Shown: in pieces, positions 49,396 through 57,869 of the stretch
Layout: every line of letters starts with the position of its first letter
Numbering within the stretch: position 1 is the first letter of the stretch
Assembly: GCA_018780265.1 (NCBI GenBank)
Contig: JADMJV010000021.1
Span: forward strand, 1-64,000
Source of the DNA: a bacterium
GTDB taxonomy: Bacteria > Vulcanimicrobiota > Xenobia > Xenobiales > JADMJV01
DNA: 64,000 bases
Reading direction: 5' to 3'
Translations under genes and position numbers: made by a program
The notes under the pieces: model-generated
Database searches by the model: none
What the model saw: the letters and a program-made list of their open reading frames with translations, nothing else
Told to the model about the DNA's origin: nothing

Positions 49396-49734
49396 TTAGA
49401 AGCACCAGGAGTTGTAACCGCCCCCGCCCAGGCTTGAACCCAAGCCCCAGCCAATGAACGACCCGATGGCGTTGCCAATCATGGCGCCGGGCGCCGCCCC
49501 CCAGAAACCGCCCAACCCAAAACCAGCCAGGCCCCCTAGCACGGTGCCAATGCCACTGCCCACCATACTGCCGGTGTAGCCGCCCATATAAGAGCCCATC
49601 GGGTTGTAGTAGCCGTAGCCCCCACACATATTGTTCATGTAGCCCATGCCGTAGGAGGGACAACAGCTCATCATGGGGCTGTAGCCCCAACTGTTACCGA
49701 TTCCCAGGCCACAACCATAACCACCTAGATACAT
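49396..49734 (-). CDS. Gly/Tyr/Met/Cys-rich small protein (112 aa) with a C-terminal glycine-zipper region.
   Basis: AAGGAG Shine-Dalgarno 7 nt before the ATG at 49734. The longer annotated ORF starts with unlikely sequence. 'MYLGGYGCGLGIGNSWGYSPMMSCCPSYGMGYMNNMCGGYGYYNPMGSYMGGY...GSGIGTVLGGLAGFGLGGFWGAAPGAMIGNAIGSFIGWGLGSSLGGGGYNSWCF'. Confidence 0.55.
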   Translation of the reverse strand: MYLGGYGCGLGIGNSWGYSPMMSCCPSYGMGYMNNMCGGYGYYNPMGSYMGGYTGSMVGSGIGTVLGGLAGFGLGGFWGAAPGAMIGNAIGSFIGWGLGSSLGGGGYNSWCF

Positions 49735-49814
49735 GGAATCACTCCTTGACTCTATTACCCGTTTACTATCCCACAGCTGGAGGCGAGGGGAAAGGCCTGA
49801 ATGTTTCCAGAATG

Positions 49815-50267
49815 TTACAGTGACGAATCCAACTCCATGATCCAACCCTCGGTAGGGTCTTTGAACCAATAGAGCATCATCTCTGGTTCTTTGATCTGAT
49901 CGCTATTCAGAATCTTCAGTACGGTCTTGATCTTCACGCGACCGCGCCGGCCGCTACTGTCGATGTCGGTTTTCAGGATCTCGTAGCGCATAATGTCGAG
50001 CTGTTCTGGCTTGACGGCAAACCACTGCTGGATTTTTTTAGGAATATTGGCCTTTTTGCGGTCCTCGGTCGAGTGGTAACTGGCGGCGTGCTGAAAGTCC
50101 TTGAAGCGCAGGTCCTCCATAAACTTCAGGGATTGCTGGGACAGGTGGTTACGGTCGGCGAGCGACCCCATCCCCTGCCCTTCGCCTCCCGAGCTGCGGT
50201 CTTTCAAAACCAGTAAAGTGAATGCAAGTGCGCCCAGCAGCAGAAATACCAGCAGGATTTTTTTCAT
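49815..50267 (-). CDS. N-terminally membrane-anchored/secreted hypothetical protein.
   Basis: Starts 'MKKILLVFLLLGALAFTLLVL'. Its start lies 1 nt after the ABC-2 permease stop. Confidence 0.4.
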   Translation of the reverse strand: MKKILLVFLLLGALAFTLLVLKDRSSGGEGQGMGSLADRNHLSQQSLKFMEDLRFKDFQHAASYHSTEDRKKANIPKKIQQWFAVKPEQLDIMRYEILKTDIDSSGRRGRVKIKTVLKILNSDQIKEPEMMLYWFKDPTEGWIMELDSSL

Positions 50268-52562: not shown

Positions 52563-54422
52563 ATGCGGCTGCGCACCTGGCTGCTGTTGCTCTTTGGGTC
52601 TTTGCTGGTGTGCACCGGCATCGCTCTGAGTAGCCTTGCTCAATATCAGGCTCGCGTCAATCTGCGCCTTTCGGTTCAGCAGCAACTCGAGAAGGGGGCT
52701 CGCGTCACCTACGAGCGCAACGACCTCACCACCTTGAGAGTGCTTGGCTATCGCATTACCGACAGCCCCTCCTGGCACGAATACCGGGCTGTTTTTGTGA
52801 CCCTCAACGGTCCTTACCAAACATTGTTGGAAGGGTCGACCCCGGACAAATTGCTCCAGCAACTGGGCACGGCCAGCGTGGACGACGGCAAGCCCTGGAC
52901 CTCGTCCGAATTCAACCCCGAAAGCAAGGGGCGCAATGCCGATTACTACGCCTGTTGGCAGGCATTGCAGGGATTGATGCGAGACACCGGTGTGACTCTG
53001 TTCGAGGAATCCGAAGGCTCGCTGCAGTTGCTGATTCTCACCGATAAGGTGGGCACGCCCTTTCTGGAGATGCACACCAGCCCGCAGGGGACAAATCCCT
53101 CCGCCGAGGACAGTTGGGCCGCTCCTCAGCTGGGCAACGACCTGCGTGACCTGCTCAAGAAGAACTCGTCAGCCGCCGAGGAGGGCTATCTGCGTCACAG
53201 CGACGGCATGGTCTATCTGGTGCGCGTTCAACCTTTTTCTTCGGGCGGCCAGTTGGTGTTAGGCAGGCGCCTCGACCAGCGCTTCGAGGAACGTCTCGAA
53301 CGCCAGTCGCCGGGGGGGGAATTTCGGGTCTCCGACGCCTCCAGCGCGGCCGATTTGAAAGGCCAGCCGTTGCGCAATCCGCCCTACCTGGACCATTTCG
53401 AACCTCTACCTCAGATCGGAAAGCCGTCCCAGACCGTCTCCCATCTCTGGGAGTTTCGCTCACTCAATTCGATCGAGGCCTATCTGCGCAAGTTGACTCA
53501 AGGCATTGCCAGTTTGGGACTGGGCGCGCTGGCGGTGGGTCTGTTGGGCATCTCCCTGGCCACCCGCTCGGTCTCCACCCAGATCGGCCGCCTTTCGAGG
53601 CGAATGAATGAGGTGGGCAGCGGTACTCTGGGCGAGGATCTGCCTCCAGCCGGGCCCCTCGAGGTGCGCCAGGCCACCGAATCTTTCAATCAGATGGTGC
53701 ATCAATTGCGCCAAAAAGAGATGTTGGCCAAGATGGTGCCCAAGCAGGCCCGCGAGGCCATTGAGCAGGATCAAACTCAAGGCGGCAGGGTGGTGGCGCG
53801 GCGCATTCGCACCACCATTTTATTCTCCGATATTCGCGGCTTTACCAACCTCTCCGAGCGCTTGCCTCCCACCGAGGTCATGAAGTTGCTGGACATCTAT
53901 CTGTCCAAGATGACCACCATTATCGAAGACCATGGCGGGGACGTCAACGAATACATCGGCGACGCCATTCTGGCCGACTTCGAAGACAAGCCCGAGGCGC
54001 CCGGAGCCGAGCGGGCTGTGCGCGCTTGCTGGCAGATGCTGCAAGCCCTGGAAGATTTGCGCAAACAAGGGCTGCACCCCGAGCTACAAACACTGCGTCA
54101 GGGCTTGGGTTTGCACACCGGCGAACTGGTCAAAGGCGAGGTAGGCGCTGCTCATCGTTCCAAGTTCGCCCTCATCGGCGACACCGTCAATCTGGCCGCC
54201 CGCATTCAAGACCGTTCCCGCGACGGCAAGCACACGGGCATTTTGCTCAGCCAGGAATCGCGCCAGGATGTGTCGACTTTCGAGGTCGCACTGTTCGGCG
54301 ATGAGTCGTTTAAGGGGAAGACGGGTCTGATCCGCGTCTGGGAAATTGTCCGCCCTTGTTGCGACGCTCCAGAAACAGGCGCACCAGGCGGCGCCGATAA
54401 GGCCCCCACTGGGCCGGGCTAA
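52563..54422 (+). CDS. Membrane-bound class III adenylate/guanylate cyclase with a periplasmic sensor and HAMP domain.
   Basis: 'TILFSDIRGFTNLSE...NEYIGDAILADF...GLHTGELVKGEVGA...FALIGDTVNLAARIQ' is a CHD signature. An N-terminal TM, the periplasmic domain and a second TM precede it. Confidence 0.8.
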   Translation: MRLRTWLLLLFGSLLVCTGIALSSLAQYQARVNLRLSVQQQLEKGARVTYERNDLTTLRVLGYRITDSPSWHEYRAVFVTLNGPYQTLLEGSTPDKLLQQLGTASVDDGKPWTSSEFNPESKGRNADYYACWQALQGLMRDTGVTLFEESEGSLQLLILTDKVGTPFLEMHTSPQGTNPSAEDSWAAPQLGNDLRDLLKKNSSAAEEGYLRHSDGMVYLVRVQPFSSGGQLVLGRRLDQRFEERLERQSPGGEFRVSDASSAADLKGQPLRNPPYLDHFEPLPQIGKPSQTVSHLWEFRSLNSIEAYLRKLTQGIASLGLGALAVGLLGISLATRSVSTQIGRLSRRMNEVGSGTLGEDLPPAGPLEVRQATESFNQMVHQLRQKEMLAKMVPKQAREAIEQDQTQGGRVVARRIRTTILFSDIRGFTNLSERLPPTEVMKLLDIYLSKMTTIIEDHGGDVNEYIGDAILADFEDKPEAPGAERAVRACWQMLQALEDLRKQGLHPELQTLRQGLGLHTGELVKGEVGAAHRSKFALIGDTVNLAARIQDRSRDGKHTGILLSQESRQDVSTFEVALFGDESFKGKTGLIRVWEIVRPCCDAPETGAPGGADKAPTGPG

Positions 54423-54744
54423 GCTGCTCTTTGCATTCGAAAATCTGGTCCACGCTCAGACTTTGGCGCTCTTTTTCTAGCTCCAAAATTTCGCCGAGCT
54501 TGCTTTTCACGGCTTCTTTCTCGGTGTTGTCCTGTTGCAGCAGTTGGGCCAACTCCACTCGGCGGGCTTCCAGCTTGATCTGAACATCTTGCACTCGCCC
54601 CTGAAAACGGCTCTGGATGGTGCGCAAAGCGCGCCTTTGTTTGGGACTCAAGTCCAGGGCCGGTTCGTCCTCGGGTTGGGCCCACAGGGGCGTCAGCCAG
54701 AAGCCCGCCAGCATCAGCCCGATCACGCCACGACGCCACATCAA
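54310..54744 (-). CDS. Periplasmic LTXXQ-motif (Spy/CpxP-like) stress protein.
   Basis: Signal peptide, then 'LSPKQRRAL' and 'LSPAQW' LTxxQ-like motifs. Last gene of the ECF sigma operon. Confidence 0.5.
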   Translation of the reverse strand: MMWRRGVIGLMLAGFWLTPLWAQPEDEPALDLSPKQRRALRTIQSRFQGRVQDVQIKLEARRVELAQLLQQDNTEKEAVKSKLGEILELEKERQSLSVDQIFECKEQLSPAQWGPYRRRLVRLFLERRNKGGQFPRRGSDPSSP

Positions 54745-55263
54745 TCAGTGACCCTCCAGGGTTTCGTCCAGGGCCAGTTCAGAGCAGGCCAGGTAGTCAT
54801 CGCTCAGATGACCCAAAGGCAACGACTCATCCAACGGCTCCTCCTGGGCCAGCGCATCGACACTGGGGATCACCTCAAAGTCGACGTCCCATTCTGGCAC
54901 CGGAGCAGCCGCCACCACAGCCGGCGCGGGTGTGGTGGCTGGAGGGGTGGAAAACAGATTGACGACCAGGACCAGCCCTGCTGCCACGGCCACTCCCCCG
55001 ATCCAACGCCGCCACACCGACCACAAAGTGCGCGAGGGAGCCGGCTCCAAACGAATCTTTTCCCACACTTTGGCTCGAAAGAGTGGACCGGGCTCCATCT
55101 CAGGCAGTTGCCCGAGCAGCTCCCAGCTTGCCTGCAACTCTTTCCACTCCACAGCACATCCAGCGCATTGGCCCAGATGTTCCTCCAGGCTCAGCAGGCG
55201 GGGCTCTTCGAGCACACCGTCGAGTCGCTCACTCATCCATTCTTGGGCTTGCTGACACTTCAC
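54745..55263 (-). CDS. Anti-sigma factor (zf-HC2, single TM).
   Basis: 'HLGQCAGCAVEW' (H-x3-C-x2-C) and TM 'IGGVAVAAGLVLVVNLF'. 4-nt overlap with the sigma gene. Confidence 0.6.
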   Translation of the reverse strand: MKCQQAQEWMSERLDGVLEEPRLLSLEEHLGQCAGCAVEWKELQASWELLGQLPEMEPGPLFRAKVWEKIRLEPAPSRTLWSVWRRWIGGVAVAAGLVLVVNLFSTPPATTPAPAVVAAAPVPEWDVDFEVIPSVDALAQEEPLDESLPLGHLSDDYLACSELALDETLEGH

Positions 55264-55928
55264 AGGTCAACTCCTTCCGCCAACAGGGGCTCAAGCCTCT
55301 TCTTCAAGGCCAGGCGAGCCCGATGCAGTTTGGCTTTCACGGCCGACACGGTTTGGCGCGTCAGTTGGGCCAACTCGTCGTAGCCCAGGTTTTGAAATCG
55401 TTGCAAGATCAGTAGTTCTCTCTGTTCATCCGAGAGGGTCGAAATGGCCGCCTGCACCTGGGCGGCCGTTTCCTGGCTCTGCAGCATGGCCTCGGCACCA
55501 ACCTCTGGATCGGGCACGTCCCATGTCGCTTCGGGATCGTTGGGTCGACTGTCCAGACTCTGGGTGCGACGTCGCTGATTCTTCTCGCGCGCGTTGCGGC
55601 ACAAATTCAGGGTGATTTGGTAAAGGTAGGTGAAGAATTTGGCGCGAGGCTCATAGCGCGGGGCAGCCCGATAGACGCGCAAAAAGACTTCCTGGGCCAG
55701 ATCCTCGGCATTTTCAGCATCGCCCGTAAAGCGAAAGACAAGGTTAACCACCGTTCGCTGGTACTTGTCCATCAGACGGTTGAAGGCCTCCGCGTCGCCG
55801 GCTTTCACCCGCAGCATGAGGTCAACGTCCTCGTCCACGTGAGATCCCTCCAGCCGTAAGGCGGCCGGAGCCGCATTCTGTGCCTGTTTCAACCTATGCC
55901 CGAAAGGGTGGGTAAGGACCCAATTCAT
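55260..55928 (-). CDS. ECF (sigma-70 family, group 4) RNA polymerase sigma factor.
   Basis: Region 2 'LAQEVFLRVYRAAPRYEP...FFTYLYQITLNLCRN' and region 4 'LSDEQRELLILQRFQNLGYDELAQLTRQTVSAVKAKLHRAR'. Confidence 0.85.
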   Translation of the reverse strand: MNWVLTHPFGHRLKQAQNAAPAALRLEGSHVDEDVDLMLRVKAGDAEAFNRLMDKYQRTVVNLVFRFTGDAENAEDLAQEVFLRVYRAAPRYEPRAKFFTYLYQITLNLCRNAREKNQRRRTQSLDSRPNDPEATWDVPDPEVGAEAMLQSQETAAQVQAAISTLSDEQRELLILQRFQNLGYDELAQLTRQTVSAVKAKLHRARLALKKRLEPLLAEGVDL

Positions 55929-56162
55929 AAGGCTGCCTCCAACTCTTTAGGGTTCAACCCTCAGGCCGGACCAAAGTTGCGGCTATGCCAAAGTTTTTAG
56001 TTCGTGTAGATTCCGCTCAGCGTGTCAGTGACAGTCAACCCATAGGTGAAAGCCGTAGCCTGAGACGCTTGCGAGCCACTGGGATTGGTTTCCATCGCAA
56101 TGTACCTCCGTTCCCACTACTTATATGCGCGGGCTACCGAGGGGATATGAACATGATGTTGC

Positions 56163-56441
56163 TTAGCCGGGAAACATGATCTCGTCGACTTCTTCGTGAG
56201 GCGCCGGTACCACGTGAACGGCAAAAATGGTACCGACCTTGCGGGCCGCTTCCGCGGCCGCGTCGACGGCCGCCTGCACGGCGCCCACGTCTCCGCGCAC
56301 GTGAATGGACACCAGCCCTCCATCCACCGAGGCGTACTTGACAATCTTGACGTTGGCCGTCTTGACGGCCGCATCGGCGGCTTCTACGGCTCCGATAAAG
56401 CCCATCGTTTCAATCATACCTAATGCTTGCCTGGAACCCAT
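56163..56441 (-). CDS. Bacterial microcompartment shell protein, BMC-H (PduA/EutM/CcmK-type).
   Basis: 'ALGMIETMGFIGAVEAADAAVKTANVKIVKYASVDGGLVSIHVRGDVGAVQAAVDAAAEAARKVGTIFAVHVVPAPHEEVDEI' is a canonical BMC domain. AGGAGGT Shine-Dalgarno before the ATG at 56441. Confidence 0.8.
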   Translation of the reverse strand: MGSRQALGMIETMGFIGAVEAADAAVKTANVKIVKYASVDGGLVSIHVRGDVGAVQAAVDAAAEAARKVGTIFAVHVVPAPHEEVDEIMFPG

Positions 56442-56442
56442 C

Positions 56443-56494
56443 GGAACCTCCTGAGACTGAATCCCTGTGCGTTCCCCTTCAGGATTCAGGTTCC
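56443..56494. promoter_or_regulatory. Imperfect inverted repeat (GGAACC/GGTTCC flanking CTGAATCC/GGATTCAG) in the divergent BMC-H / decarboxylase intergenic region. It overlaps the BMC-H ribosome-binding site.
   Basis: Arms at 56443-48/56489-94 and 56457-64/56482-89. On the BMC-H mRNA this would place the AGGAGG Shine-Dalgarno partly in a stem. Confidence 0.4.
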
Positions 56495-56537
56495 TTCCCA
56501 ACAGGAGCCGATCCCATGCAGCCGAGAACCCTCCGCC

Positions 56538-57869
56538 ATGTTTACCTCGCAATCGGGTTTGGAGCTGCTCCAAGAAGCTCTACAGCATCTAGATCAGGGA
56601 TTTGCCCACCTACCCGAGGCCCAGGTAGCGCTGGAGCAAGAGCGACTTCGTCCCATTTTGCTCGAGGTCGCTCAGCGCATGCGCGACAACTATCCCTACG
56701 CACACCCGCTCTACGCGGGTCAGATGCTCAAGCCGCCCCACCCCATAGCGCGCCTGGCTTACGCCCTGGCCCAGTTTGTCAATCCCAACAACCACGCCCT
56801 GGACGGCGGGCGGGCCAGTTCTGAACTGGAAAAAGAAGCGGTGGCCGAGATCGCTCAAATGTTGGGCTGGTCGACTCACCTGGGTCACCTCACCAGCGGT
56901 GGCACTTTTGCCAATCTGGAAGGTCTCTGGATTGCCGGTCGCCTTCACCCGGGGCGGCGCATTTTAGCCTCGGAACAGGCTCATTACACCCATCAGCGCA
57001 TCTGCTCGGTCTTGCAGATCCCTTTTACGGCGGTGGCCAGCGACGAGCAGGCCCGCATGGATGTGGCCGCCCTGCGCCACCACCTGGAGCAAGGAGATGT
57101 GGGCACGGTGGTGGTCACCTTGGGCACTTCCTCGGTGGGGGCGGTCGACCCGCTCGAGCAGATACTGCCCCTGGCCCGGCAGCACGGCGCCCGAGTCCAC
57201 GTGGATGCGGCCTATGGCGGCTATTTTCGGTTGGCCACTCAGCTCCATCCAACCGCAGCGGCGGCTTTCGCGGCCGTGCCCGGGGTCGACTCCCTGGCCA
57301 TCGACCCCCACAAACACGGACTTCAGCCCTATGGGTGTGGCTGTATTCTCTTCCGTGACCCGGCCGTGGGCCACTTCTACAGGCACGATTCGCCCTACAC
57401 CTATTTCAGTTCCGACCAGTTGCACCTGGGCGAAATCAGCCTGGAATGCTCGCGAGCCGGGGCCAGCGCGGTGGCTCTGTGGGCCACTCAGCGAATGATG
57501 CCCCTGGTGGTGGGCGGAGAACTGGGGAGCCGCCTCGACCTGGGCCTGGCCGCCGCTCAGGACCTCTATGCCTGGCTCCGGCAAAGGCCCCAACATTGGC
57601 AGACCCTCTACGCGCCGTCTCTGGACATCGTCGTCTGGGCACCGCAGGGAACCAGCGCCAGCCAGGTTTCAGACCACTCCCAGCAGATTTTCGAGCGGGC
57701 CGCTCAGCTCGACCTTCATCTGGCCCTCACTCAGGTCAGCGACCGCCGCGTCTGGCCCCAGCTCAACTGGGATCAGCCACGCCTCACCTGCCTGCGCAGT
57801 TGCCTGATGAAGCCCGAACACCAACAGTGGCTGCCGGAAATCTGCCGTCGCCTCGAGTCAGCCCTCTAA
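56538..57869 (+). CDS. PLP-dependent amino-acid decarboxylase (group II; GAD/tyrosine-decarboxylase-like).
   Basis: 'LTSGGTFANLEGLWIA', 'SLAIDPHKHGLQPYGCGCILFRD' (PLP-binding Lys). ATG at 56538. Confidence 0.7.
   Translation: MFTSQSGLELLQEALQHLDQGFAHLPEAQVALEQERLRPILLEVAQRMRDNYPYAHPLYAGQMLKPPHPIARLAYALAQFVNPNNHALDGGRASSELEKEAVAEIAQMLGWSTHLGHLTSGGTFANLEGLWIAGRLHPGRRILASEQAHYTHQRICSVLQIPFTAVASDEQARMDVAALRHHLEQGDVGTVVVTLGTSSVGAVDPLEQILPLARQHGARVHVDAAYGGYFRLATQLHPTAAAAFAAVPGVDSLAIDPHKHGLQPYGCGCILFRDPAVGHFYRHDSPYTYFSSDQLHLGEISLECSRAGASAVALWATQRMMPLVVGGELGSRLDLGLAAAQDLYAWLRQRPQHWQTLYAPSLDIVVWAPQGTSASQVSDHSQQIFERAAQLDLHLALTQVSDRRVWPQLNWDQPRLTCLRSCLMKPEHQQWLPEICRRLESAL

Follow-up and report, generated by a model that had tools for sequence, protein, structure and literature searches.

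The 64-kb stretch of DNA analysed here (the window; positions 1 to 64,000 of contig JADMJV010000021.1, from a bacterium of the Vulcanimicrobiota) carries, at 56163-56441 on the minus strand, a gene for a bacterial microcompartment (BMC) shell protein of the BMC-H type, 92 aa in length. An AGGAGG Shine-Dalgarno sequence (56448-56453, minus strand), read from the sequence, lies 6 nt 5' of its ATG at 56441. Divergent from this gene, on the plus strand at 56538-57869, is the gene for a group II pyridoxal phosphate (PLP)-dependent decarboxylase of 443 aa (PF00282, E=5e-26), and 97 bp separate the two ATGs. On the other side, 234 bp past the BMC-H stop codon and on the same strand, begins a gene for an extracytoplasmic function (ECF) sigma factor (55260-55928, minus strand), which is followed by the genes for a membrane anti-sigma factor (54745-55263, minus strand) and for a secreted PF13801 protein of the CpxP/Spy/ZraP-like, LTXXQ type (54310-54744, minus strand; Metal_resist E=2.3e-12), the latter in the +2 position of the sigma gene. 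An earlier reading of the stretch, made from the letters alone (the sequence-only reading), had described this arrangement. The BMC-H gene with its AGGAGG is confirmed by a full-length PF00936 match and by sequence reading, and the divergent decarboxylase by its PF00282 match and its ATG at 56538. The genes and the distance of the sigma operon also stand, with the correction that the 234-bp gap holds a 32-aa micro-open reading frame (micro-ORF), missed at first, and promoters.

The context of BMC-H in fetched relatives, which are designated by L numbers (L004, L086, L172 and so on), was compared with that of the window. The contexts are those of twelve BMC-H proteins of one clade, the window's own included, plus four loci from a genome collection (L004-L007). 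The window and 28 related sequences together make up 29 sequences and 471 kb, corresponding to about 14 distinct loci.

The shell protein and the search for further microcompartment genes

The BMC-H protein consists of a single, non-permuted domain that covers positions 1-75 of 75 of the PF00936 profile (E=1.4e-24). Its nearest PDB chains are the EutM-like 4axj and PduA 3ngk (E about 1e-27 to 1e-28); E values against EutM-like 4axj, PduA and HO-5815 range from about 1e-23 to 1e-28, the identity to solved shell proteins is 55-60%, and the alignment with 4axj, 3ngk and 5djb runs end to end. The RGDVGAV core and the G-G pore loop are kept, the pore loop as V-D-G-G. Basal BMC-H proteins have two inter-hexamer motifs in common, KAAN and (P/A)RPH (Sutter 2021, PMC8217296). 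The first of these (PduA K26 and N29) is found as KTAN in the window protein, and within its clade the Lys and the Asn are conserved at 99% and 86%, respectively. In the second, the position of PduA R79 is occupied by Ala (VPAPH). The protein had been called a textbook BMC-H, a description that suits its full-length PF00936 domain and its KTAN edge and fails at the arginine of (P/A)RPH.

The best 120 matches in a database of 5.8 billion proteins form, bar two, one distinct BMC-H clade, with 61-100% identity to the window protein, and the NCBI-named Eremiobacterota proteins among these 120 all fall within this non-standard clade. Ala occupies the PduA-79 position in 94% of the 118 clade members (PAPH/PAPV). 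The canonical comparison set of the signature alignment was chosen for PRPH, which makes the R79 contrast circular in that alignment; the contrast is nevertheless independent of this choice, because RP stands at the position in nearly all BMC-H of 80 canonical metagenome loci. In PduA numbering the clade signature reads A24, S44, H46, Q55 and A79, the nearly fixed differences from canonical BMC-H beside R79 being M24A, T44S, I/M46H (99% His), K55Q and G34K/N. The orphan, Arg79-less 'PAP(H/V)' proteins appear to be a BMC-H subfamily specific to Eremiobacterota (Vulcanimicrobiota), and the identities of 62-100% between orthologs, together with the fixed signature residues, point to strong purifying selection on the protein. 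A metal site formed by H46 and the pore residue D39 was considered as well, as the neighbouring sigma factor module looks metal-related; no such site is claimed, because the co-varying M24A, T44S, I/M46H and K55Q could equally reflect a repacking of the core.

Other microcompartment genes were sought by six-frame searches with hidden Markov models (HMMs), one built from 35 BMC-P sequences of canonical loci and one from 120 BMC homologs. At E<=10, neither a BMC-P nor a second BMC domain was present in the whole 64-kb window, and each of the 28 related sequences likewise contained a single BMC domain and no BMC-P. The canonical loci, which served as positive control, yielded BMC-P in 39 of 80; among those of at least 17 kb, extra shell genes were found in 13/17, and 4/17 held a single BMC-H gene without BMC-P. 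These control loci derive from a metagenome scan with the BMC-H protein that returned, among the matches listed, only canonical VIPRPH BMC-H of 50-67% identity. Aldehyde dehydrogenase, PTAC and PduV/EutP were not seen among the Pfam matches listed for the window ORFs (one scan, 25 of 53 families). The sequence-only reading had noted that BMC-P, further shell proteins and signature enzymes were missing from the surroundings of BMC-H, and the HMM searches of the window and the listed Pfam matches bear this out. With the decarboxylase, the micro-ORF and the sigma factor module as its neighbours, BMC-H is present as a shell gene only, in the manner of satellite loci; an arrangement in which it is encoded with BMC-P, shell paralogs or cargo in one locus was found neither in the window nor in the 28 related sequences. 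In the literature searches no report of BMC proteins in Eremiobacterota emerged, nor of a link between BMC-H and a sigma factor. In the covered parts of the 2021 BMC catalog's 18 supplementary files, the name 'Eremiobacter' does not occur and other phylum names do, and microcompartments go unmentioned in the description of V. alpinum, the only cultured member.

The sigma factor module, the micro-ORF and their promoters

Orthologs of BMC-H (62-100% identity) adjoin an orthologous module of ECF sigma factor, zinc anti-sigma factor and PF13801 protein in 10 locus groups, which represent most of the lineages sampled, namely the window, L007, L086, L084/85, L167, L176/177, L172, L173/174, L175 and L183/184. 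The sigma factors encoded near BMC-H in these other loci are 51-72% identical to that of the window, and the anti-sigma factor and the +2 protein are also orthologous. The window's sigma factor has Sigma70_r2, r4_2 and Sigma70_ECF domains, that is, regions 2 and 4 only. The anti-sigma factor at +1 combines a zf-HC2 domain (E=2.8e-8) and one transmembrane helix with the zinc motif HLGQCAGC (H-x3-C-x2-C), which was read from the sequence and is kept in L084, L172 and L175. A PF13801 protein occupies the +2 position also in L084, L086, L167 and L176.

The order of these genes varies among the loci. BMC-H, micro-ORF and sigma gene follow one another both in the window and in L007; L086 has the same BMC-H/sigma order with two inserted genes, and in L084/85 one gene is inserted and an FMN dehydrogenase takes the place of the decarboxylase upstream. 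In L172, L173/174, L175 and L183/184, 84-92 nt separate BMC-H from the sigma gene downstream of it, and in L167 and L176/177 the operon runs sigma factor, anti-sigma factor, PF13801 protein, BMC-H and micro-ORF, which places BMC-H at its opposite end. The link between BMC-H and the sigma module is thus deep and withstands rearrangement, and that with the decarboxylase, confined to one subclade, is shallow. The suggestion that BMC-H may be tied to envelope-stress control gains support from this comparison, extending as it does over 10 locus groups, two gene orders and inserted genes.

The BMC-H of L183/L184 (P0040) carries the NCBI label 'Victivallales bacterium', and its neighbours, LMWPc, an FAD oxidoreductase, a 524-aa protein and the ECF sigma factor, are as in L172-L175; this short contig is probably mis-binned. 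In L168-L171 and L180-L182, the last three from marine samples (TARA), an orphan BMC-H gene comes after a conserved series made up of a histidine kinase, a response regulator, a hypothetical protein, a Peptidase_C14 of caspase-like type and a protein of 163 aa, with a type II secretion/type IV pilus gene (T2SSF) facing it, a different and equally shell-less context.

Directly past the BMC-H stop codon of the window lies a 40-nt promoter-like element (56121-56160, minus strand) made up of AACA-N3-TGTTCA, 21 nt and TATAA, followed by GGAGG and then by the 32-aa micro-ORF (55997-56095, minus strand; METNPSGSQASQATAFTYGLTVTDTLSGIYTN). The architecture of this element is identical in six loci (window, L004, L005, L007, L086 and L167). 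The sole exact copy of AACANNNTGTTC in the window is the one in this element, and the AACA-N3-TGTTC palindrome was rejected as a repeated operator, being present in a single exact copy without enrichment. Among the fetched loci, micro-ORF orthologs of 24-33 aa occur in L004, L005, L007, L086, L167 and L176/177 and were not seen in the deeper lineages. The micro-protein ends in a C-terminal motif, (V/A)(F/Y)T(N/Y)GL-x5-(F/L)(S/G)G(V/I)Y, and five of its residues are invariant, each of them encoded by 2-3 synonymous codons over six sequences. This synonymous turnover at invariant residues indicates that the micro-ORF is conserved at the protein level. The gene stays beside BMC-H in L004 and L005, where the sigma module is gone, and sits directly before the sigma gene in L086; terminator-like hairpins are found 3' of its stop codon in relatives. 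The micro-ORF had no match in Pfam, NCBIfam or Rfam, an Rfam search of 55700-56700 gave no family at E<=1, and a scan of 55800-56700 for sigma-70 promoters and intrinsic terminators found none. A mycofactocin-like (…GVY) or PqqA-like precursor was also considered for the micro-protein and rejected, as its Tyr does not stand at the C terminus and the neighbourhood has no conserved maturase.

The sigma operon is preceded by an ECF-type promoter (55951-55980, minus strand) formed by GCAACT, 17 nt and TTGAACC. The general motif, G(G/C/A)AAC(C/T)-N17/18-TT(C/G/A)(A/G)A, precedes the sigma gene in the window, L007, L084, L086, L172 and L173, with 10 matches in 265 kb vs 2.7 +/- 1.3 expected, and the sigma gene of L175 has a variant of it. 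The recurrence of the motif at this position looks like an autoregulated ECF promoter, and with an ECF-type promoter of its own the sigma operon would be independent of read-through from BMC-H. The window has two copies of the -35-like AACTTTGG at a spacing of 17 nt (55971-55978 and 55988-55995), and tandem promoters are possible there. In a motif scan, no sigma-type promoter was found upstream of the window's BMC-H gene or micro-ORF.

BMC-H itself has a conserved element upstream (56469-56498, minus strand), which consists, on the BMC-H sense strand, of GGAAGGAA(C/A) (56490-56498), 14 nt and GGAA(C/A/T)G (56469-56477), about 57 nt before the start codon. These two blocks are the only conserved parts of an otherwise diverged intergenic alignment of the window with L004-L007, and L086 carries the element too. 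Its distance to the BMC-H start is fixed and that to the decarboxylase start variable. The alignment suggests that GGAAGGAA(C/A)...GGAA(C/A/T)G is a possible promoter or operator of BMC-H.

A stand-alone shell protein and its alternatives

We propose, with a probability of roughly 40%, that the window encodes a stand-alone BMC-H protein that has been repurposed outside a conventional microcompartment and acts with an ECF20-like envelope/metal-stress module. According to this proposal, BMC-H would be transcribed from its own promoter; without pentamers and the tiling arginine it would not close a shell and would exist as free hexamers or open assemblies, a sheet or a tube being possible too. 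Such assemblies might contribute to the stress response by scaffolding, by buffering or as a binding platform, with the micro-protein or the cytoplasmic domain of the anti-sigma factor, for example, as what the platform binds, and in the subclade of the window BMC-H may also work with the co-conserved 24-33-aa micro-protein. It is conceivable, and slightly more tentative, that the generalisation extends to the phylum: the BMC-domain protein of Eremiobacterota may have left microcompartments altogether, as a single-copy, pentamer-less protein without the tiling arginine that takes a stress role under ECF sigma control, in one class together with the micro-protein.

Several points weigh against the stand-alone proposal. 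It derives from the comparison of sequences. The exact sigma-type promoter stands before BMC-H in L172 only, and the sigma module is not within 10 kb of BMC-H in L004-L006, L168-171, L180-182 and L178/179. Other neighbours are syntenic across the phylum too, namely an ABC_tran/ABC2_membrane pair, a 150-aa protein, a HAMP-cyclase and CarboxypepD_reg, and with so broad a synteny the adjacency of the sigma module could be inherited and not selected. Moreover, a main BMC locus or dispersed, FRAG-like BMC-P genes may lie elsewhere in the genome, the searches having covered the 64-kb window and the related loci.

The last of these points leads to the strongest alternative, an ordinary satellite or FRAG-type shell gene. 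By definition, a satellite locus has a main locus, with a BMC-H gene and a BMC-P gene at the least, in the same genome (Axen 2014, PMC4207490; Sutter 2021, PMC8217296); BMC-P, shell and cargo genes would then be encoded elsewhere, and the window's BMC-H would be a specialised, separately regulated facet component that tunes the shell as has been proposed for CcmK3/K4. Satellite and FRAG arrangements are common, FRAG shell genes being found at up to six genomic sites (PMC8217296), and the 55-60% identity of BMC-H to bona fide shell proteins, as well as the 4/17 long canonical control loci that are also single-H without BMC-P, fit such a gene, as does the extent of the searches. We nevertheless regard it as rather unlikely: the interface arginine common to basal facet BMC-H is missing from the whole clade, about 14 distinct loci contain no other shell gene, and the named Eremiobacterota among the best matches all belong to the non-standard clade. 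The covered parts of the 2021 catalog supplements, where the phylum was not found, and the V. alpinum description point, if weakly, in the same direction.

The broad synteny also allows the adjacency to the sigma module to be read as neutral and inherited, the function of BMC-H being unrelated or decaying within a block that is slowly rearranging. This explanation would account for the syntenic ABC_tran, ABC2_membrane, 150-aa, HAMP-cyclase and CarboxypepD_reg genes and for the three lineages that carry BMC-H without the module. It is improbable, since the adjacency is kept with BMC-H at either end of the operon (L167/L176 vs the window) and despite one or two inserted genes (L084 and L086), and since purifying selection on BMC-H is strong.

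Much the same judgement, only more severe, applies to the idea, put forward in the sequence-only reading, that BMC-H encapsulates or scaffolds the divergent decarboxylase as cargo. The enzyme shares 74-78% identity with proteins from four metagenome-assembled genomes of Vulcanimicrobiota (Eremiobacterota, WPS-2), which places the window in or very near that phylum. It scores below every NCBIfam equivalog cut-off, its nearest solved relatives being group II decarboxylases of various specificities. The divergent pair is kept in the window, L004-L007 and L086, and the enzyme has an amphipathic-looking N-terminal helix (LELLQEALQHL), which would agree with a cargo role. The decarboxylase adjoins BMC-H in these loci only, however; it is not beside BMC-H in L167, L176, L084, L172-175 and L183, so that the pairing is absent where BMC-H identity is 79-81% (L167/L176) and in all deeper lineages. 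Similarly, among 80 decarboxylase loci taken from the genome collection, BMC-H is adjacent in four, the other 76 being from other phyla and without BMC-H; the orthologs in other phyla are 55-64% identical and of the same length. A cargo enzyme would be expected to carry a terminal helix extension and to co-occur conservedly with shell genes, and the decarboxylase does neither. At its N terminus as at its C terminus it is collinear with 12 orthologs, nine of them from other phyla and without BMC-H, the window protein being the shortest, which indicates that no encapsulation peptide, a feature for which the sequence-only reading had advised a check of the termini, has been added. The same N-terminal helix and C terminus are present in BMC-H-less orthologs of Chloroflexota, Desulfobacterota, Bacteroidota, Planctomycetota and Thiobacillus, the sampled loci hold no BMC-P to close a shell, and the L086 decarboxylase is split into two called ORFs. 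A cargo relationship is thus highly improbable, and by the comparison of loci and termini the decarboxylase is a neighbour by descent, through lineage-restricted synteny, and not cargo. The two ORFs of L086 (8565-9898; 328 + 116 aa) together have the full length and may reflect a frameshift/pseudogene or an assembly error.

An inverted repeat in the region between the divergent genes (56444-56495) had been described as pairing across the AGGAGG of BMC-H, and was thought to be either an operator or a translational switch. The repeat does exist, with a perfect 8-bp inner stem, CTGAATCC/GGATTCAG (56457-56464/56482-56489), flanked by an outer GGAACC/GGTTCC, and it belongs to a rare class, as 8-bp short-loop repeats occur in about 2-3% of 96-nt tiles. 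The Shine-Dalgarno sequence, however, lies in a bulge of the repeat and is only 34-57% paired (43-66% unpaired) if the RNA holds those arms alone; a value of about 83% is reached only in a long leader, by pairing with a further upstream CUCCUG, which takes a transcript start at least about 65 nt upstream. When the leader was folded, as the sequence-only reading had advised, it was no more stable than dinucleotide shuffles, the z-scores of -1.60 (118 nt), -0.82 (108 nt) and +0.08 (71 nt) being not significant. The four orthologous leaders (L004-L007), whose lengths differ by >100 nt, fold worse than shuffles (z = +0.84 to +1.57), and their alignment reveals no equivalent hairpin, conserved arms or covariation. 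Moreover, one arm of the outer stem coincides with the conserved GGAAGGAAC element, which is kept in relatives without its complement. A switch or operator formed by this repeat is highly improbable after these comparisons, and the hairpin is incidental, its arms being judged a fortuitous match.

Wider meaning and comparison with known systems

BMC shell proteins are assumed to exist for building organelles, and surveys require BMC-H and BMC-P together, which means that BMC-H-only lineages fall outside the catalogs. If the stand-alone proposal is true, it would disclose a second, non-organelle life of the BMC fold that is conserved throughout a phylum, and the phylum-wide BMC-H subfamily would offer a tangible case in which to study the role of orphan shell genes. 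Also new are a micro-protein gene, conserved and previously without annotation, and, for a phylum with hardly any cultured members, an ECF promoter motif.

Two other ORFs of the window were noted. An 814-aa ORF at 17707-20151 (plus strand), 36 kb from BMC-H, encodes a bacterial homolog of the Major Vault Protein (MVP), a cage-forming protein of eukaryotes. It matches the full-length model of the MVP shoulder domain (PF11978, E=1.8e-24), has a vault repeat (PF17795) as well, and aligns with eukaryotic MVP structures over their residues 467-787, approximately (E about 3e-13). The second, at 49396-49869 (minus strand), is a Gly/Tyr/Met-rich low-complexity ORF (…GYGCGLGIGNSWGY…GGYGYYNPMGSYMGGY…), called as 112 aa in L001, with an ABC-2 permease cluster on one side and a hypothetical protein of 399 aa on the other; L086, L167 and L176 have ORFs of 100-117 aa at the corresponding place, and no Pfam match is on record for the window's ORF or for these.

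Compared with the basal BMC-H proteins PduA, EutM and HO-5815, the window protein has in common the one non-permuted PF00936 domain of ~90 aa, an identity of 55-60%, the edge residues K26/N29, the RGDVGAV core and the G-G pore loop. It differs in having Ala for R79, in M24A, T44S, I/M46H, K55Q and G34K/N, and in its V-D-G-G pore loop, and no BMC-P, BMC-T or cargo genes are found near it. Satellite loci (CcmK3/K4) and FRAG loci (Axen 2014, PMC4207490; Sutter 2021, PMC8217296) also present a lone shell gene away from the enzymes and possibly separately regulated, a likeness seen here in the sampled loci; the difference is that the clade of the window is without the standard residues.

As to the sigma module, no BMC-domain gene is part of any conserved ECF neighbourhood according to the main text of the ECF classification (Casas-Pastor 2021, PMC7826278), and in this the window departs from the known ECF groups. 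The module itself resembles the ECF20-derived groups ECF281 and ECF290 of that study, with a sigma factor of regions 2/4 only, a zinc-binding anti-sigma factor at +1, a PF13801 'heavy-metal resistance' protein at +2 and a GGAAC-type -35 upstream of the sigma gene, a likeness judged by gene layout; both groups have been linked to heavy-metal stress (PMC7826278).

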